Of a stretch of DNA of 64,000 nucleotides, positions 20,816-62,306 are shown one piece after another (the first letter of the stretch is position 1; every line of letters begins with the position of its first letter). This stretch comes from Eledone cirrhosa (taxonomy: Eukaryota): the NCBI GenBank assembly GCA_964016885.1, contig OZ024740.1, positions 358,732,001-358,796,000 of the forward strand. Reading direction: 5' to 3'. The position numbers and the translations under genes were made by a program. Under the pieces are notes generated by a model. The model saw only the letters and a list, made by a program, of their open reading frames with translations, was not told where the DNA came from and did not search any database.

Positions 20816-22214
20816 GGAGGGGGGAGGAGGAGAAGAGGGGAGGGAAGGGATGTTAGTATGTTAGTTGGGGAAGGGTGGTCAGATGAGGGGTGTAGTGGAG
20901 GTGTTAGTATTGTTAGTGTGGGGTGGGCGGTGAAAAGGAGGGGTGTGTTAGTGGTGTTAGTGGGGGATAAGTGTGGGGGGAGGGGGGCGGTCGAACGCTA
21001 AAGGAATAAGGGTGGGGAGTTCAGGCCGGGGGGAGTGTGGGTCTGTAAGATGAAGATAGTGCGTTGTTCGACCGTAAGGCGATGGGCGGGTGTTCCGTGG
21101 CACTGGAGTAGGCCACAGACTGTGAGATGGCGTGCGGAGTGTCCAGGGCCACCAAAGTGGCGGGCGATGGGGGAACTGCCCCCGAGACGAATATCCCGGA
21201 GGTGCTCCGTGACTCGGTCCGCCAGGCGACGTCCCGTCTGTCCGACATAAGTCGCGCTGCACTCCGTGCAACGAAGTCCGTAGACTAGGTTGGAGGAGGT
21301 GCAGCGGAAGGCATGCCGGACCGAGAGAGAGAGTGGCCGTTGGGACCCTGGAAGGTGGTGGTGTTGGTGATGTGGGGACAGGTGTTGCAGCGGGGCCTAG
21401 AACAGGGGAAGGAACCGGGGGGGGGACCGGAGCGTGGGTTGGGGGGTATGGAGCTGTGGACGAGGAGGGTGCGGAGATTGCGTGCGCGTTTGAAGGAGGG
21501 GGGTGGTGGGGTTGGGAAGATGTGGGAGGTGGAGGGGTCGGACTGGAGGCGTCGGAAGAGGCGGCGGATGGTGCGGTGGAGGGGTAAGGTGGAGGGGTGG
21601 TAGGTGATGGGGAAGGGGAGCGTTGGGTGGGTGTGCGGTGGCGTGGGGTGAGGGTGGTGGAGCGGGGGATAGCAGGGGCGCGGGTGAGAGCGGTGTAGAC
21701 GAGAGCGGGGGGGGGGGGGTAACCTCTGCGGATGAAATGGCTGACTAGGGAAAGGGCTTGGGACTCGAAGTCAGCATCACGGCTACAGAGTCGGCGGATC
21801 CTGAGAAGTTGGGAGTAGGGAATGGAGAGTTTAGTGTGGGTGGGGTGGGAAGAGGTGAAGTCGAGGTAAGAGTGGGAGTCGGTGGGTTTGAAGAAGGCGG
21901 AGGTGACGAGGGAGTGGTGGGAGGGGTCGAAGGCGACGGAGATGTCTAAGAAGTGGACGTGGGTGGTGGAGATAGAGGTGGTGAAGTGGAGGGAGGGGTG
22001 GAAGGAGCAGAAGAAGGAGAGAAAGGAGTCGAGCTGTACTCGGGTGAGGGTCGTGGCTCCGATACAGTCGTCAATGTAACGACCGTACAGTTCGGGCGTG
22101 GGGCCGGTGTACTGGGCAAAGATTTGGGCCTCAACATGGCCAACAAAAAGGTTGGCATAGTTCGGGCCCATTCTTGTGCCCATGGCTACCCCCGTGACCT
22201 GTTGGTAAAACTCA
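20816..22214 (-). mobile_element. Neptune-like PLE, 5'-truncated and frameshifted (RT, thumb, GIY-YIG)
   Basis: GVAMGTRMGPNYANLF, YGRYIDD, FKPTDSHSYL..SSHP..KLSIPYSQLLRIRRLCS; an alternate frame gives YVGQTGRRLADRVTEH. Clade name is inference. Confidence 0.9.
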
Positions 22215-45134: not shown

Positions 45135-45548
45135 ACATGCGTCCCTTAGCGCCTTGTGCATGAAGGAACACATATCCTATTATTACTACTCTCCCCTATT
45201 GTTGAGAGACAAATTGGGTCGATCCGACTGCTGCTAGTGATAGTTGCGGCCGGTTTGACCTACCTCCCTCTGCCTCTATCTTTACTTCGGCCCTTGAAAA
45301 AATTGATTCCACATCATTCACTCTCATCCCAGGAACAGTTTTGGATAGCGCTAGTTCGTAATTTAAATTCAAGAATTTTATATTCTTCGAATGAAAAGAA
45401 CCTTCTGACGAGAATCTTTCTTTGCAACGAAGGCCGTATGGTCTCCGTTTATTTTGGGGATTCGAAACCGATCGGTAAAGGTAACTATAGCAGGAAAGTC
45501 AATTTTTAAAAATTTATTTTGAAATTTTTTCATTATTTGCTAAACCTT

Positions 45549-48608: not shown

Positions 48609-49361
48609 AGTCGGATGATCCCATAGTAATGTCAAAATTGCTATCTCTATCTGCTCTGGTCCATAGTTGGTCATTAAATTCTATCAAAGTTTTCCTAGCC
48701 GATAATATAATATGCATTTCATTGCTAGTTAGGTCAGTATGTTTGAATGCGTAATTTAGTGCCTTATTTAGTAGATTAGGGGTAATAGAAGAATAATAGT
48801 TAGCTATATCAAGTTGAATAAACTTATTATTATTGTTATATTTAATTTGCTTAAACCACTCAACAACCTCTCCAGTTCCCTTCCACAAGCTCAGGTTAGA
48901 TAAACAATCCAAGTTCTTAATTTGCTGTATCACCCTGTCAAGAATGTTTTTGCTTAATTTGCCCAGGTCCGATTTTGATGGTGCGATCAATCTAACTGGC
49001 AAGTCATTTTCAAAATTCCTCTTGTGATCTTTCATATTGATCTTCGGTTTCCTGGGCACGAAAGGTTGTGTTCTGTTCTCAATTTCCAACTCGTGCATTA
49101 TACAAGATGCTTCGACATTCATTTTCTCAAGCTCGGCCTTATCTGCTACCTTGTACTTTTTCCTCAGCTCCTTCAGTATGAGGCCATTATACATGTCTTT
49201 CTGCACTCCATAGAGGTTGTTGGTCTTGTCAGATTTCACCAAGATCTTCTCAGTTTTCTCTAAGCTCTCAATGTTATCCTTAATGCCTTTCAGATATTCC
49301 TGGCCTTTGAAGTTTCTCTTGAATTTGACCCCTTGTATGATAGAAATTATATCGTTTTCAT
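48609..49361 (-). mobile_element. PLE RT N-terminal fragment, inverted relative to its downstream part
   Basis: KSDKTNNLY, KDHKRNFEN..VRLIAPSKSDLGK, FIQLDIANYYSSI, FDITMGSSD; near-identical to 54180-54584. Confidence 0.92.
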
Positions 49362-51172
49362 TTAAAAATATAGTATACAATTGTAATGTTAATACTGACT
49401 CTAATTCTTTTAACTACGTCGGTTCCACATCGACGGAATTTAAACTTCGCTATAATAACCACAAGAATTCTTTCACAGATCCAAGCAAAAAGTCTTCAAC
49501 GGCACTATCAGGCGTACTCTGGCAACTTAAGCTAGATAACGTTAGATATTCGACGGCTTGGAATATAGTCTCAAGAGGGATTCCTTTTAATTCATCCTCT
49601 GAGACATGTGACCTCTGCGCAGAGGAGATATTCTTTATACTAAAATCTAAAAATTCCCTTAATCTACGGACAAATTTATTCAGTTGCTGCAAACATAGAT
49701 TAAACTCAACGTTTAAATATAAATTTAAATTTAAAATGTAGTATATTTAGTTTGATTTATAATTATATGGGAAACTAGCCGATAAATCTTTGATTTCTTC
49801 TTTTTCTTCTTTTTATTTTTATTTTTATTTAAACATTCTTCATGAAAAATTAAGCTACCCTAAAAGTTGATGCTCCAAATATTTCGAATAAACGTTACAC
49901 TAGATAAACTTCTATATTAAATATAAGAACACATGTAGACCAAATGGGCATCCTAAACCTTTTGAAATGATCTTTGCTAGATGCGATTTGATAGATAATT
50001 TTTGGCTTTATCTGCTTTTCGACTCTGATGCTTATAATGAACTTGGCAATATATTGTCAATTAATTTTGAAGGGTTGATCTTTGTGGTTTATTTTTATTT
50101 TTCTTATTGTAGTATTTTCTAATATTTTTATTTTTAATTTTTTTAATATGTAATATTTTTAATATGTAATATTCTTTCGTAATATTTTTTAGTTTTCTAT
50201 TTTATTATTACTTATTATTATTATTGTTATTTTTTAGTTTTGTTTCTGATATATATTTTTATTAGTATATTGAAATCTGCTCTTTATTTCTGCTTGATAG
50301 ATAATCTTGTAGAGTAAAGACAGGAATAGTAGTAATATTGACTCTATATATATTTGTGTGTATATATATACACATATATGTATACTTAAATTTTTATACC
50401 ACAATGAGAATGTTTTCCGTGAACTTAGGGTTTGCAGAGTTGATCATGTAAATTCACATAGATGTTTGTAGTTATCACATATGAATTTTTAAAAAACTAA
50501 ACATAAGATCTTTACTTTTCACACATTATGGGTACATGTCTCATTCAGGAATACTGATATTTACAGTATAGTGGCTGGTTTTTATACATACATTAAAACA
50601 TAGGGTTTTTACGCCTCGCCTATGTCTGGTTATTTTTAAATTTTTCTCTCTATATAACAGCTGGTTTCTCTCCATATATCTCCCTTACATTAATACTAGA
50701 GCTAAATAAATAAATAAATGTATCATTGATACGTTTACTCAACGGACGTCCCACTACCTAGTTTTCTATATATATATATCTATCTCTTTTTCCTCTCTCT
50801 CTCTATATATATATATATATCTCTGTTTCTTTACATGAAGTTCTTCTCTTTATCTATCTTTCCATCTCTCTATTTTGTTCCATGCATTTCTTCTTTTTCT
50901 TCTTTTTTCTTCTTTTTCTTCGTTTTCTATCTTTCTTTCCTTTTTTTCTCTCTTTCTTTCTCTCTGTGTACAATTTTTTCACTGCCAATTCAACTTTTTC
51001 AAATACAAGTCGATGTTGTTACGGTATGTCAAATCTATTTATCTATAAAACTGTTTATATTGTATTTTGTCTGAGGAAGGCATAGCATATTGTTAATATG
51101 ATATCCCTGAAATATGTATAATGAAATAAATATGGTTTTATAAATATAGTTTCCATTTATTTAATATTGTAT
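49362..51172 (+). mobile_element. PLE GIY-YIG fragment, 3' UTR and pLTR
   Basis: NIVYNC..NYVGSTSTEFKLRYNNH..CDLCAEE; reverse-complement homology to 51222-53317. Confidence 0.92.
51071..51118 (+). ncRNA. HHR-like core in pLTR; family copies at 51282-51323 (-) and 55155-55200 (+)
   Basis: CTGA(G/T)GA-AGG-catagcatattgttaatatgatatc-CC(T/C)-GAAA-tat(a/g)ta; stem I poorly defined. Confidence 0.55.
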
Positions 51173-51221
51173 ATATATATATATATTAATATATATATAT
51201 ATTAATATATATATATATATA

Positions 51222-51687
51222 TACAATATTAAATAAATGGAAAACTATATTTATAAAACCATATTTATTTCATTATATATATTTCGGGGATATCATATTA
51301 ACAATATGCTATGCCTTCATCAGACAAAATACAATATAAACAGTTTTATAGATAAATATATTCGACATACCGTAATAAACATCAACTTCATTTGAAGAGG
51401 TTTACGCTAGCAGTGAAAATACAGAGAGAAAGAAAGAGAGAAAGAAAAGAGGGAAAAAAAGAAAGAAAGACAAGACGAAGAAAAGGAAGAAAAAGAAGAA
51501 AAAGAAAAAGAAGAAATGCATGGGACAAAATAGAGAGATGGAAAATAGATAAAGCGAAGAGCTTCATGTAAAGAGACAGAAAGATATATATATATATAGA
51601 GAGAGAGGAAATAGAGATAGATACATATATATATATAGAAAATTAGGTAGTGGGAGGTCATTTTGAGTAATTGTATCAATGATACAT

Positions 51688-51722
<35 letters not shown>

Positions 51723-54585
51723 TATATTTATTTAGCTCAAGTATTAATGTAAGGGAGATATATAGAGAGATATAGAGAGATATATATAGAGAAAAAAAAA
51801 TTTAAAAATAGCCAGGCATATTCGAGGCGTAGAAAACCCCATGTTTTAATGTATTAGTATTTATAAAACTTACACTATATTGTAAATATCAGTATTCCTG
51901 AATGAAACAAGTATTCACAATGTGTGAAAATTCATTATCTTATGTTTAGTTTTAAAAAATTCATATGTTTATGTGACAGCTACAAACATAAATGTGAATC
52001 CAACTGATTCACTCCGCAAACTCTAAGTTACCGGAAAACATTCTCAATGTGGTATAAAAATTTGAGCGTATTATTATTCTTGCGATTACTCTACAAGATT
52101 ATCTATCAAGCAGAAATAGAGAGCAGATTTCAATATACTAATCGAAAATATATATTATATTATAAACAAAGATAACAATAATAATAATAATAAGTAAAAA
52201 TATATAAAAAATTTAGAATAGAAAACTAAAAAAATATTACGAAAGAATATTACATAGTAAAAATATTGCATATTAAAAATACTACGTATTAAAAAATATT
52301 ACGTATTAAAAATTTACATATAAAAATATTAAAAATAATTAAAAAATAAAATAAAAAATAAAAATATTATAGAATACTACAATACTAAAAGAACAAAAAT
52401 AAAAATAAAAATAAAAATAAAAATAAAAATAAAAATAAAAATAAAAATAAAAATAAAAATAAAAATAAAAATAAAAATAAAAATAAAAATAAAAATAAAA
52501 ATAAAAATAAAAATAAAAATAAAAATAAAAATAAAAATAAAAATAAAAATAAAAATGAAAATAAAAAATAAACCACAAAGAACAACCCTTCAAAGTTAAT
52601 TGACAATATATTGCCAAGTTCATTACAAGACAAAGCCAAAAATTATCTATCAAATCACATCTAGCAAAGAATATCGCAAAAAGATTATGATGTCCAATAA
52701 TGTCTACATATGTTCCTATATTTAATATAGAAGTTTATCTAGTGTAAGGTTAATTCAAAAAAATTTGGAGCATCGGCTTTTAGGGTAGCTTAATTTTTCA
52801 TGAGGAATGTTTAGATAAAAATAAAAATAAATTAAATAAAATAAACAATAAAAAGAGTAAAAAGAGGGAATCAAGGATTTAGGAATCAAAAGATTTATCG
52901 GCTAGTTCTCATATAAATATAAATCAAACTAAATATACTACATTTTAAATTTAAATTTATATTTAAACGTTGAGTTTAATCAATGTTTGCAACAACTGAA
53001 TAAATTTGTCCGTAGGTTAAGGGAATTTTTAGATTTTAGTATAAAGAATATCTCCCCTGCGCAGAGGTCACATGTCTCAGAGGATGAATTAAAAGGAATC
53101 CCTCTTGAGACTATATTCCAAGCCGTCGAATATCTAACGTTATCTAGCTTAAGTTGCCAGAGTACCCCTGATAGTGCCGTTGAAGATTTTTTATTTGGAT
53201 CTGTGAAAGAATTCTTGTGGTTATTATAGCGAAGTTTAAATTCCGTCGATGTGGAACCGACGTAGTTAAAAGAATTAGAGTCAGTATTAACATTACAATT
53301 GTATACTATATTTTTAACTAAGCAGTTGTTATTTAACGGACATTTAGATCTATCTCTACAGTTACATTTGTTAACTTGTATATTATTTATGCTATTATCA
53401 GTAGGTTTTAAGTTCCTATTATTTATTCTATTAATATTTTGTGCTAAATTTTTGGTGGATGAGTAGGTTAATTTAATTGTATGCCTATTGAAGATTGAGT
53501 GATACCTATGTGTTCTAGGGAAGCGATTATCAAGAGCTTTGAAAAATAATTTAGCGATGTGGGTTTTAATGTTTAGTGAGAAAGGGGGGCAAACCAAATT
53601 ATGTTCCTAGTTCTATTTCTTTTTTGTCCTTTGGAATTATTGTAATGCTTTCTATTATAGTTGTTAATGTTGTTGCCGTAATTAAAAAAGTTGTTACTTT
53701 GTTTAGTTTGTCTATCATTATCTATGTACACAATCTTATCAGCATACCCTGCCCTAGCTAGTGCATCATTATAGTATTGGGCCTTTTCGTCAAAAATCTT
53801 TCTATTCGACGAGATCCTAGAGATACGTTTTTGGACTGAGTTTACTATAGTGTTTTTGACAGATCTGGGGTGGTTAGAGTTAAAGTTGACATAGTTTAAG
53901 TTTTCATTCAACTTGTGAAAAGGATAGTGGAGACATGTGTTGAGATTTAATGTTATATCTAGGAAATTGACTATTCTATGGTTGTTCTCAATTTCTATTT
54001 TAAGATTAAAGTAATTAAAAAATTTTGTAATTTGTTTACATTTTCTATTTAGTTCAGGGTTATTATTATTAATAAGTAAAAGCATTTCATCCCTATATAA
54101 ACCTCCGGTAGTACCAGGTATTTTCCTATGTAGCGAATTGATTAAAAATAAGCCCACAAGGTCAGTTACCTGAGCTGAGTCGGAAGATCCCATAGTTATG
54201 TCAAAATTGCTATCTCTATCTGCTCTGGTCCATAATTTGTCATTAAATTCTATCAAAGTTTTCCTAGCCGATAATATAATATGCATTTCTTTGCTAGTTA
54301 GGTCCGTATGTTTGAATGCGTAATTTAGTGCCTTATTTAGTAGACTAGGGGTAATAGAAGAATAATAGTTAGCTATATCAAGTTGAATAAACCTATTATT
54401 ATTGTCATATTTAATTTGCCTAAACCACTCAACAACCTCTCCAGTTCCCTTCCACAAGCTCAGGTTAGATACACAATCCAAGTTCTTAATTTGCAGTATC
54501 ACCCTGTCAAGAATGTTTTTGCTTAATTTGCCCAGGTCCGATTTTGAAGGTGCGATCAATCTAACTGGCAGGTCATTTTCAAAAT
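51222..54585 (-). mobile_element. PLE, 5'-truncated: RT, thumb, CNC motif, GIY-YIG and 3' UTR; inactivated
   Basis: ORFs 53573-54559 (QLDIANYYSSI, MGSSDSA, GLYRDE, VNFLDITL, SNHP) and 52980-53597 (GIY-YIG). Frameshift near 53585 and premature TGA at 52980. Confidence 0.95.
52395..52570. repeat. (AAAAAT)n expansion inside the PLE 3' UTR
   Basis: Directly visible; only a few units at the homologous site near 50090. Confidence 0.9.
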
Positions 54586-55343
54586 GAATACTGATATTTA
54601 CAATATAGTGTAAGTTTTATAAATACTAATACATTAAAACATGGGGTTTTCTACGCCTCGAATATGTCTGGCTATTTTTAAATTTTTTTTTTCTCTCTCT
54701 ATATCTCTCTATATCTCTCTATATATCTCCCTTACATTAATACTTGATCTAAATAAATATATAAATAAATAAATAAATAAATAAATAAATGTATCATTGA
54801 TACAATTACTCAAAATGACCTCCCACTACCCAATTTTCTATATATATATATGTATCTATCTCTATTTCCTCTCTCTCTATATATATATATATCTTTCTGT
54901 CTCTTTACATGAAGCTCTTCGCTTTATCTATTTTTCCATCTCTCTATTTTGTCCCATGCATTTCTTCTTTTTCTTTTTCTTCTTTTTCTTCCTTTTCTTC
55001 GTCTTGTCTTTCTTTCTTTTTTTTCCCTCTTTTCTTTCTCTCTTTCTTTCTCTCTGTATTTTCACTGCTAGCGTAAACCTCTTCAAATGAAGTTGATGTT
55101 TATTACGGTATGTCGAATATATTTATCTATAAAACTGTTTATATTGTATTTTGTCTGGTGAAGGCATAGCATATTGTTAATATGATATCCCCGAAATATA
55201 TATAATGAAATAAATATGGTTTTATAAATATAGTTTTCCATTTATTTAATATTGTAAATATACTCCAAATATTTGTCGAGTGCTTTTATATCAGTTATAA
55301 ATATTTACTAGTTGTAACCGAATAATTTTAAATATAACTTTAC
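54586..55343 (+). mobile_element. Inverted pLTR of the 51222-54585 PLE
   Basis: 54586-55256 is the reverse complement of 51222-51897, with an extra extension of about 85 bp before (TA)n. Confidence 0.9.
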
Positions 55344-55611: not shown

Positions 55612-56959
55612 TTTGTTTCTGAATTTGTCTAGCAAGATTCTTTATCTGAAATCGTGTGTTGAAACCGATATTGTTATACTTTGGGAGGGTCATGTTGCCA
55701 ATAAGAAACACACGCACCAGTTGCTTTCACTTCAATTTATTATAATAAATTTATAATAAATTTATAAATTCATAAATTCCTGGTTGGTTGGTTGGTTCCA
55801 CAACCAGATAGTTGTTTATATATTGTCATAGTTCTTTCGTCACACACTCTATGACCTCTTCAGTGACTGGGGATTCCTTTCTTTGTTTCTGTGCCTCTCC
55901 TTTGTTCTGTCCTACGCCATTTTGTTTCTGTGTGTGTGTTGTGTGCTCAGTCTGCGCATGCGCCACATCCGGGTGTCTGTGTGTGTTTATGTTCATTTAT
56001 TTATTTGTTTATTTACATGTTACTGGTTGGTTGTTTGTTCTATGTGTGTGTGTGTTTTCATTTTGTCCTTAATTGTAAGTTGTGATGTAGCTGTTCCACT
56101 CATATTTTCTATTTAATTTTGGTTGTAATTCTTTTATGTTTATTGCCTCTGTGATTTGTCTAAACATTGCGTCTTTTCTGTGTGTAGATTCTATTTTTAT
56201 TTCTACGTTCTCTAATTTACCCTTGTGTTCTATTTTAGCATGTTGGTAGAGTACAGAGGATTCTTTACTATCTTGAAGGTCTCGCCAGTGTTCATTTATC
56301 CGTTTCCCTACACTACCAGCTGTCTCACCTATGTACACTATATTTTTGTCTCTACATTGTCCTTCAGTACATCTTATGCTATACACTACATTTCTAGTTT
56401 TACAGTTAATATGGGGGCTTATTTTACAGGTTATACATTTCTTATCTATACATGAGGGTCTTTGAAAAGGGTATGTCTTGCTAATAAGTGTTTTTACGGA
56501 GGTACCTGGTCTTTCTACTATCTTAATATTGAGTTTATGTTTATCTAGGGCCCTTCTAAATTTGTAAGCTAATTCACCTCTAGGGGTTGTATCGATGAAC
56601 ATTACACTCTGGTATTTATTGATATCATACCATGAGTTTATTCTATTAGCCTTGTTCCTAGTTCTTTCTATTCTATTCCAAAATTTGCTCCTATACAAGG
56701 GGCAGGTCCCATTTATGTCATTATTTACCATTTTTTCCCATTTGGTTCTGACTCCTCTATACACTCTGATTTTATCTCTCTGATTGTAACCAGAGAACTG
56801 CATACGGTGGATGAAGTGTTGTATGTGTCTCTCTAGTTCTTCGGGGTTGCACATGCGGGACACGTTTCTCATCACCCGTACCAAATCCGCAATCAGTATG
56901 TTGATTTTGGTATGGTCCGAAACGGCCGAGTTTCGATGGATCAGATGTTTGGAAGTCAA
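55612..56959 (-). mobile_element. PLE of a third type (Naiad-like), 5'-truncated: thumb, Cys-rich linker, GIY-YIG, pLTR
   Basis: Open 296-aa frame: SAVSDHTKINIL..RMQFSGY..PLYR..CIDKKCITC..NVVYSIRC..VYIGETAGSVGKRINEH..RQITEAINI..LNRKYEW. Clade name is inference. Confidence 0.9.
55825..55867 (-). ncRNA. Minimal type I HHR
   Basis: GTCA/TGAC; CTGAAGA; GTCAT/GTGAC; GAAA; A-gaac-T-A. Confidence 0.75.
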
Positions 56960-57671
56960 GTAAAGTAAATTAAATTCTACGACCTAGGTCTCAGGCTATT
57001 GTTAGGCTAGAATAAATAAATAAATAAAGGGTCCTCGCCTATTCCGTCCCACCTAGTTCTTTTACTTATTTCGTTATTTCTTTATTTCTTTCTTTACTTC
57101 TTTCTTTCTTTATTTATTTATTTATTCTAGCCTAACAATAGCCTGAGACCTAGGTCGTAGAATTTAATTTACTTTACTTTTTTCTTTACACTCATCTATT
57201 TTTCTTTACACTTATTTGCTTTTCTTCACTCTCAGTATTTTTTCTTTCCTATATTTCTACCCCCCATTGTTCTACCTACCGTTCCGACTTCCTCCCCCTC
57301 CCCCTCCCCTGTATCTTCTTTGACCTCATGCCCAGCTGTAGCTGGCACTACAAACGCTTGATTGGGGCTACTCCACCCCCTCCCCTCTTTCTCCTACTGG
57401 CAGGTTTAGCCACCATCTCCCCTACTAATTTGCAACCACAGAATTACTACTGATTTTTGACAATCACTTTGACCATATATGGAATTACCCCTTGAGAAGA
57501 TCGGCTATTTAAATACCAGGATAAATTTTCATTTAGTCCAGAATTAGCCGTCGAAACGGCTTGAGCTCAGCTGTCGGGGTCTTACTGGTTCCTATTACCC
57601 ACTCTACTACCTCAAGTATTGAGTACTTTGGTGCGTTATGGTCCACCTGGTTCCTTACCACATTTCCTTCG

Positions 57672-57673
<2 letters not shown>
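56958..57673 (+). mobile_element. Non-coding HHR element with 5' inverted duplication
   Basis: 56958-57029 is the reverse complement of 57108-57179; 3' part repeated at 61153-61293; ends in (TA)n. Confidence 0.8.
57487..57580 (+). ncRNA. Type I HHR with U3-A8 core (UUGAGAA)
   Basis: ACCCC/GGGGT; TTGAGAA; GA-t-CGGCTA/TAGCCGTC; GAAA; ACGGCT-tgagctc-AGCTGT; GUC at 57575. Confidence 0.85.
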
Positions 57674-57721
<48 letters not shown>

Positions 57722-57790
57722 TATGAAGAGAGAATAAACATTTAGATATAATTAGTAATAAAATGTATCATACCTAAACTGCTCCTAGAT

Positions 57791-57880
57791 TCCTCGACTA
57801 CGTAGTTTCGTGGCATAAACAAAAACAATACATCATAAAGATATAGTGTCCTTGCGAGGTCAGCCGACTTATCAAGAGGA
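57791..57880 (-). ncRNA. Type I HHR with U3-A8 core, inverted copy
   Basis: Reverse complement of 57914-58003. Confidence 0.8.
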
Positions 57881-57913
57881 TACCTCATTTTACTAAGCTA
57901 GTAAAATGAGGTA

Positions 57914-58003
57914 TCCTCTTGATAAGTCGGCTGACCTCGCAAGGACTCTATATCTTTATGATGTATTGTTTTTGTTTATGCCACGAAACTACGTAGTCGA
58001 GGA
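57914..58003 (+). ncRNA. Type I HHR with U3-A8 core (UUGAUAA)
   Basis: TCCTC/GAGGA; TTGATAA; GT-c-GGC/GCCAC; GAAA; palindrome ACTACGTAGT; GUC at 57998. Confidence 0.85.
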
Positions 58004-58239
58004 ATCTAGGAGCAGTTTAGGTATGATACATTTTATTACTAATTATATCTAAATGTTTCTTCTCTCTTCATAATGTATTTTTAACTCTGATACTGGTTCA
58101 GTCTAATTCAGCCGGATTGGTCTGTCTCAGTCATTCATTGAGCAACATCGGTAAGGTTGGCACCATTAACTCACGGTTGGGTGTGGATGCATTCATGTAT
58201 ATGTGTGTGTCCACATGTATCTGTGTGTTTCTAAATATA

Positions 58240-58241
58240 TT

Positions 58242-58288
<47 letters not shown>

Positions 58289-58296
58289 TATATGTA

Positions 58297-58335
<39 letters not shown>

Positions 58336-58599
58336 ATGCATATATATATATATATATATATATGTATGCATATATATATATATATATATATATGTATGCA
58401 TACATCTATCTATCTATATATATATATGTATGCATATATCTATCTCTCTCTCTCTATATATATATATATGTATGTAGGTATATATATATGTATGTATATA
58501 TATATATGTATGTATGTATATAGATGTATATATATATATGTATATATATGTATTTATATATATATATGTATATATATGTATATATATATATATATATGC

Positions 58600-58688
<89 letters not shown>

Positions 58689-58715
58689 TGTATGTATATA
58701 TATATATATATGTAT

Positions 58716-58791
<76 letters not shown>

Positions 58792-58805
58792 TTATATATA
58801 TGTAT

Positions 58806-58859
<54 letters not shown>
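58240..58859. repeat. (TA)n/(TATG) compound microsatellite
   Basis: Directly visible. Confidence 0.95.
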
Positions 58860-58864
<5 letters not shown>

Positions 58865-59042
58865 TTCTAGCCTGATAGTGGGGTTTATAACCCTCGGAGA
58901 AATGGAAAAATATGAGTGTTGCCGTACATACCCTCAGAGAAATGGAAAAAGATGAGTGTTGCCGTACATTTCCATGTACGGCAATCTCATCTTTTTCCAT
59001 TTCTCCGAGGGTTATAAACCCCACTATCAGGCTAGAAATTTC
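58860..59042. repeat. Fold-back inverted repeat with an internal 40-bp tandem duplication
   Basis: GAAATTTCTAGCCTGATAGTGGGG...GCCGTACAT versus ATGTACGGC...CCCCACTATCAGGCTAGAAATTTC. Confidence 0.9.

Positions 59043-61088: not shown

Positions 61089-62306
<1,218 letters not shown>

Follow-up and report, generated by a model that had tools for sequence, protein, structure and literature searches.

A Two-Armed Hammerhead Insertion in Eledone cirrhosa and the Non-Coding 593-bp Repeat Family to Which It Belongs

Structure of the Insertion

The window analyzed here is the whole 64,000-nucleotide stretch of the Eledone cirrhosa genome, and positions are given on it throughout. It contains a 526-bp insertion of a 593-bp repeat unit (57716..58241, the right boundary being approximate at ~58241), in which an inverted short arm and a forward long arm meet head to head. 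The short arm (57716..57895, minus strand) comprises unit positions 3-182 and stops at the first fixed 3' end of the family, position 182. The long arm (57895..58241, plus strand) comprises unit positions 592-593 and then 1-345, and stops at the second fixed 3' end, at about position 345. The 163-bp "tail" between these two fixed ends (58079..58241, plus strand) is present on one arm only. The target is a (TA)n repeat, seen on the left at 57673..57715 and on the right at 58242..58859; the left run also follows the long end of a neighboring Penelope-like element (PLE) of what we call the 57487 family.

A near-perfect 179-bp hairpin with a 3-nt loop had been described at this site in the initial annotation, and this was borne out: the arms at 57717-57895 and 57899-58077 are complementary over 179 bp, with mismatches only at 57735/58059 and 57847/57947. 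The loop (57896..57898) lies at the head-to-head junction, where the 5' ends of the arms are 4 unit positions apart with a 1-nt overlap. The limits given earlier for the element, 57717..58077, were too short, because the right arm extends 163 bp further, to ~58241. Missing from the window copy are unit positions 346-591 and with them a TATA-like box (452-459). Since this copy amounts to 0.6 unit, it can give no full monomer; it is probably inert and a dead end, and any double-stranded RNA (dsRNA) made from it is probably incidental.

Numerous further inverted pairs occur in the window (56958-57029 / 57108-57179, 58860-59042, 48609-54616, 20990-22214 / 36413-37558, 38792-39663 and 61089-61292), several of which are bounded by (TA)n and overlap PLE reading frames; the overall impression is of head-to-head PLE insertions piled up in the window. 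The window also holds a broken LINE with AP endonuclease and reverse transcriptase (RT) domains (27985-31206, plus strand).

The Hammerhead Motif and Its Competing Folds

By descriptor scan, a type I hammerhead was located on the plus strand at 57914..58003 and a second copy on the minus strand at 57791..57880, in agreement with the earlier claim that core, stem I, palindromic stem III and GTC site are found in both arms. In the plus-strand copy, stem I is TCCTC/GAGGA (57914-18/57999-58003), the core is TTGATAA (57919-25) with U3-A8 instead of C3-G8, and stem II, capped by a long hairpin, has a C bulged out at 57928. The 10 nt of stem III (57988-97) are palindromic, and the GTC site places the predicted cut after 57998; on the minus strand the cut is predicted after 57796. 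The predicted fold has the three-helix junction, core positions 3-9, GAAA, the UH site and the open helix I of type I hammerheads, and constraining the sequence to the hammerhead costs 1.1 kcal/mol relative to the minimum. In an Rfam scan of the window, the 123 matches at E<=10 included no hammerhead family, and the motif alone folded no better than its shuffles (z -1.2). Two more hammerhead-like motifs in the window, at 45400-45482 (plus strand) and 31982-31928 (minus strand), have canonical C3-G8 cores.

Across the family the motif is well kept. With a search pattern allowing either core, the Watson-Crick 3-8 pair was found as U3-A8 in 99 of the first 100 matches listed, the remaining match having U3-G8 and none C3-G8. 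Recurrent variants occurred at 0/29 ribozyme positions unfixed by the search pattern, compared with 101/551 positions elsewhere (p=0.005); at a lower variant threshold, the counts were 2/29 and 138/551 (p=0.025). In 36 aligned copies, 96.6% of alignment cells in the stems were paired versus 35-57% in slid controls; covariation did not exceed shuffles, with one double change, in stem I. The alignments are therefore consistent with the hammerhead structure and do not prove it. Stem III is predicted to be unfolded alone and to reach -12.9 kcal/mol between two copies, and co-folding of two motifs gave a predicted dimeric form.

Two hairpins are predicted just before the fixed 3' ends. The one at 57984..58082 (plus strand, z -3.8), in which the 3' half of the ribozyme pairs with sequence just before the short end, competes with the ribozyme fold. 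The other, at 58165..58233 (plus strand, z -5.8), lies just before the long end, and its pairing is kept in 9/11 recurrent variants. A read-through transcript of the insertion was predicted to form a hairpin of -305 kcal/mol from which the ribozyme pairs are removed, so the proposal that dsRNA would sequester the ribozyme holds, as a prediction, for the full hairpin. Sequestration is not peculiar to the palindrome, since one arm is predicted to do the same: when the right arm is folded together with the sequence that follows it, the pair probability of stem I falls to 0.0, versus 0.87-0.90 in the motif alone. The presence of the ribozyme on both strands is a by-product of the mode of insertion of the family.

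The 593-bp Repeat Family

The hammerhead core together with the start of stem II had 6,726 exact matches in the 3.0-Gb genome, compared with 74 for the reversed control; this motif is not due to chance. From thirty loci, a 593-bp tandem unit was defined. The longest open reading frame (ORF) in a dimer of the unit has 85 codons, so that the unit lacks protein-coding capacity, as retrozymes do. Two further marks of retrozymes, namely many dispersed copies and tandem units that each bear a type I hammerhead, are likewise found in the family, the window copy itself being shorter than one unit. More than one unit is present in 39/90 arms, the longest of which has 4.9 units, and successive units in one arm differ by a median of 0.68% (by more than 1.5% in 13/75 arms). 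The family is, then, a non-coding, hammerhead-bearing repeat with thousands of copies.

Features of PLE-type insertion are also seen. Of the standard 3' ends (short, 182; long, ~345), 82/84 run into TA repeats, which agrees with the AT-rich or microsatellite targets of PLEs, and the insertions have the PLE-type arrangement of an inverted, 5'-truncated arm placed head to head, with a tail at one end. The family likely represents a non-LTR retrozyme moved by a PLE. We found neither this family nor a strict rule for the pairing of its ends described in the open-licence literature.

An older subfamily (L069, L101, L107, L110 and L119) is 75-84% identical to the unit and has the same core and the same two 3' ends; L110 carries a compensatory change in stem I. 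At L085-L090 (G000:C1:19.62 Mb), a two-armed insertion is duplicated 2.55 kb apart with an identical junction.

The 57487 Family and the Search for an Autonomous Partner

Outside the insertion, at 57487..57672 (plus strand), lie a hammerhead and the 3' end of the neighboring PLE, whose family has 7,375 pattern matches in the genome. At locus L217, a 786-codon ORF containing YRDD and GIY-YIG-like motifs lies between hammerheads of the 57487 family, and among the Atlas neighbors of this ORF are clusters in which RT and GIY-YIG members, where they occur, make up 18-77%; on these grounds the family is an autonomous PLE. Pfam at E<=0.1 gave no name for three long PLE ORFs, the identity of which was assigned from tblastn, motifs and Atlas neighbors. 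Short and long ends of the 57487 PLE were paired in 7/7 pairs. Among the first 100 listed copies of the family, about 23 (hand count) have a mismatched C3-A8 core, 2 have U3-G8 and 0 have C3-G8; the C3-A8 lineage, whose ribozyme is probably impaired, has nonetheless become widespread.

The two families had been called unrelated in the initial annotation, yet said to have a U3-A8 core and a stem II bulge in common. BLAST agrees with the former in that it gave no hammerhead-region match between the 57487 family and the 593-bp unit among the matches listed, but short motifs are common to both families: stem I is GC-rich in each, stem II has TCGGC/GCC, the core is U3-A8 and the site is GTC. These four features are missing from seven further hammerhead-like motifs of the genome, which makes common ancestry of the two families plausible as far as such short motifs can suggest it. 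The U3-A8 core is indeed common to both, but the bulge is not. Of 24 loci of the 57487 family that were fetched, 15 were scored, and a bulge after pair 2 of stem II occurred in 4/15; the others have a 2x1 internal loop. The bulge is infrequent there because the position varies between A, C and T against a fixed partner strand.

As to a partner for the 593-bp family, no PLE ORF joined to the unit was found in the loci examined, and a pattern for divergent continuations of the unit gave 29 matches, all of them ordinary unit copies. PLE fragments adjoining unit copies at L112 and L151 proved on reading the sequence to be separate insertions. The abundant Neptune-like PLE of the window was rejected as a partner too, having a canonical core and different ends. 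A young Neptune-like PLE is present at 55612-56983 of the window (minus strand) and at L218:1688-5188, with a canonical minimal hammerhead near 55865; the genome has 38,699 candidates of this element, with open frames of up to 1,167 codons.

Pairing of Ends and Position of Junctions

The arrangement seen in the window recurs throughout the family. A first, core-selected set consisted of the window and the 53 stretches behind the first 100 core matches listed on contig C1. It contained 31 two-armed insertions (the window and one segmental duplicate counted) and 24 that were not two-armed. In 29 of the 31, one end was at 182 and the other near 345; one old copy had two short ends, and one was non-standard. 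After removal of the duplicate, 28/29 insertions with two standard ends were mixed, short plus long (p=1e-7 against 50%). In a second set, 35/37 were mixed and short-short or long-long combinations numbered 0; this set was picked by similarity or by the tail motif and is hence biased, and at least one insertion is common to both sets. Raw reads of an independent DNA run also contained the two family ends, with 214 and 219 reads exiting into (TA)n, as well as two opposite-strand joints, each from one start.

The 5' ends of the arms lay more than 15 nt apart at 57/67 head-to-head junctions and within 5 nt of each other at 7/67, the window included (p=2.5e-4), so near-perfect palindromes are a recurring minority product of the family. 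The near-perfect hairpin of the window is the case, about 10% of junctions, in which both arms stop at the same point. By extrapolation, the genome may hold a couple of hundred near-perfect palindromes of the 593-bp family, each a potential source of dsRNA. Several long arms are just 33-126 bp and lie within the tail; short arms extend to 2.9 kb. Only 13/26 junctions allowed exact microhomology to be measured (1-3 nt of overlap in 8, inserted bases in 5), numbers too small to use.

The 5' ends of arms were not enriched at the predicted ribozyme cut (4/193 versus 1.95 expected, and 0/83 in the core-selected set), and a haplotype switch at the cut site, looked for in locus L001, was not found. 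Twin priming of the L1 type was rejected, long-arm 5' ends lying within 10 nt of position 183 in only 1/27.

Similarity of the Two Arms

In the arm-divergence sample, made up of copies that match the reference unit at 88% or more, opposite arms of one insertion differed by 0.40% (79 comparisons) and tandem units by 0.30% (77), compared with 3.19% between different insertions (9,094). In 17/23 insertions, the two arms were nearer each other than to any of 48 others; in 6/23, another insertion was as close as the second arm. Measured against the median other insertion, own arms were nearer in 22/23 and further apart in 1/23. Rare alleles were held in common in 32/79 opposite-arm comparisons versus 151/9,094 between insertions. 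The window is an example: both of its arms have T at position 36, which is seen in 0/101 other units of this sample and in one further fetched insertion, L001.

These sequence comparisons suggest that both arms were copied from one RNA source; one RNA molecule and two RNAs of one source locus are indistinguishable from these data. The rule of one short and one long end, together with arm identity, points to two cDNAs primed on opposite strands of the target from one RNA source.

Proposed Mechanism and Alternative Explanations

The window copy is a truncated, head-to-head insertion into (TA)n of a non-coding hammerhead unit; we consider it probable that it was mobilized in trans by a PLE, and that its arms are cDNAs of one RNA source. 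A PLE protein acting in trans, probably as a dimer, would nick both strands of the (TA)n target, and reverse transcription would start at position 182 on one strand and at ~345 on the other, each start being just 3' of a hairpin. Both cDNAs would stop and then be joined head to head; in the window they would have stopped at most 4 nt apart, giving the near-perfect palindrome. The ribozyme, probably acting as a dimer via palindromic stem III, would cut multimeric transcripts to unit length, and the resulting RNAs would probably circularize and serve as templates for multi-unit arms. Parts of this scheme have precedents in the accessible text of published work. A PLE protein, predicted to be a dimer, was reported to cut and extend both strands in vitro, with starts at two tail-bounding sites, and ribozyme mutants did not block insertion in vitro (PMC11167929); hammerhead cutting of multimers to unit length for circular templates was proposed in PMC4209133.

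A narrower version, tentative though quite possibly right, is that one RNA, possibly a hammerhead-made circle, is used by a PLE dimer to make two cDNAs from fixed sites 163 nt apart, one per strand. If true, a single rule would cover one-end tails, head-to-head arms, junction palindromes and identical multi-unit arrays, and no natural system would show the two-cDNA priming step more clearly than this long-tailed retrozyme family. Nothing stating this model was found in the accessible open-licence literature, where PMC11167929 comes nearest.

The same observations can be read in other ways. In fold-back self-priming, as proposed for junction palindromes in rotifer Penelope elements in the accessible text of PMC3846280, a cDNA from the long end would fold back, be copied and be resolved at 182, so that the palindrome is one cDNA copied twice. 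Arm identity and the excess of coincident junctions (within 5 nt) would both follow, but this explanation is unlikely in view of the majority of junctions, in which the 5' ends are more than 15 nt apart. Where the long arm is wholly inside the tail, the short arm is not a copy of it, so the combination of long arms of 33-126 bp with short arms of up to 2.9 kb argues against fold-back, under which the stop at exactly 182 also calls for an explanation of its own. Alternatively, two independent RNAs may have been reverse transcribed, the arms becoming alike later by gene conversion or being alike through one dominant source locus. Inverted repeats can undergo conversion, and a few insertions do have arms 2-4% apart; we regard this course of events as rather improbable, because the one-short, one-long rule does not follow from it alone and because rare alleles are so much more often common to opposite arms than to different insertions.

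Two further explanations concern the hairpin itself. It could be a selected regulatory device, with the U3-A8 and bulge motif forming a subclass of its own that is switched off by dsRNA. The conserved core and stems across the family, and the predicted loss of the ribozyme fold in the full hairpin, would suit such a role. However, the second U3-A8 family does not have the bulge fixed, sequestration is predicted even for one arm by itself, coincident junctions recur as a minority product, and the diagnostic allele of the window copy is absent from runs where the position was read, all of which makes a selected device very improbable. That the hairpin is a fold-back read or an assembly artefact is scarcely credible. 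The junction was unseen in 8 runs, a weak point because it is not expected there: these were contigs or reduced-representation reads, and a raw-read run without the allele of this copy. Three runs labelled with other organisms yielded just a few contigs of low depth. The arms differ at 2 sites, one of them an allele found in 2/101 other units; the palindrome ends exactly at the short end of the family, with flanking DNA excluded; and the right arm extends as far as the long end, as in 28/29 insertions.

Comparison with Known Systems

As a ribozyme, the motif adds little. U3-A8 is an active natural covariation of hammerheads according to the accessible text of PMC3088659, and in that of PMC4209133 (Cervera and de la Pena 2014) some 1,300 PLE hammerheads of Schistosoma mansoni are reported to carry it. 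The latter source also describes PLE hammerheads as opposite-strand pairs 100-700 bp apart with palindromic helix III and predicted dimer activity, and a helix II bulge in the Penelope hammerhead of Drosophila virilis. Since PLEs are already on record with U3-A8 cores, with hammerheads paired on opposite strands and with a palindromic helix III, and since the bulge is not fixed in the 57487 family, the idea of a distinct structural hammerhead subclass had to be abandoned. The hairpin insertion adds to known kinds, and its ribozyme variant is already published. The value of the family is mechanistic: its young insertions number in the thousands, and their tail is long enough to be scored unambiguously. 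The useful outcome is the rule of end pairing and of one source for both arms. The origin of tandem and inverted PLE insertions was named an open task in the accessible text of PMC8557442.

The motif described here resembles PLE hammerheads, as presented in the accessible text of PMC4209133, in its U3-A8 core, opposite-strand pairs, palindromic helix III, predicted dimer and helix II bulge. Its own features relative to that text are the position of the bulge after the second pair, the 10-nt palindromic stem III, and a further hairpin of ~48 nt capping helix II. With metazoan non-LTR retrozymes, as far as the accessible text of PMC7229834 (Cervera and de la Pena 2020) and of the preprint 10.64898/2026.07.22.740005 (Li et al. 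2026) describes them, the family has in common non-coding tandem units with a type I hammerhead each, thousands of dispersed copies, and a proposed nature as non-autonomous PLE derivatives. Its unit is longer, 593 bp versus about 300 bp (350-390 bp in mussel), this being a typical size and no strict criterion, and the U3-A8 core and the long capped helix II are its own relative to these texts. The word "inverted" is absent from PMC7229834; the preprint has it once and lacks "tail" altogether.

In its mode of insertion, the family agrees with endonuclease-positive PLEs, as described in the accessible text of PMC8557442 (Craig et al. 2021), PMC3846280 (Arkhipova et al. 2013) and PMC11167929 (Frangieh et al. 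2024): an adjacent, inverted, 5'-truncated copy lies head to head, the tail is at one end, targets are microsatellite or AT-rich, junction palindromes occur, and two RT starts bound the tail. It differs from the elements in these same sources in having no ORF, and in the length of the tail, which is 163 bp here and 30-40 bp in endonuclease-positive PLEs. The rule of one tail, worded as "often" or "optionally" in those PLE papers, is near absolute in the 593-bp family.
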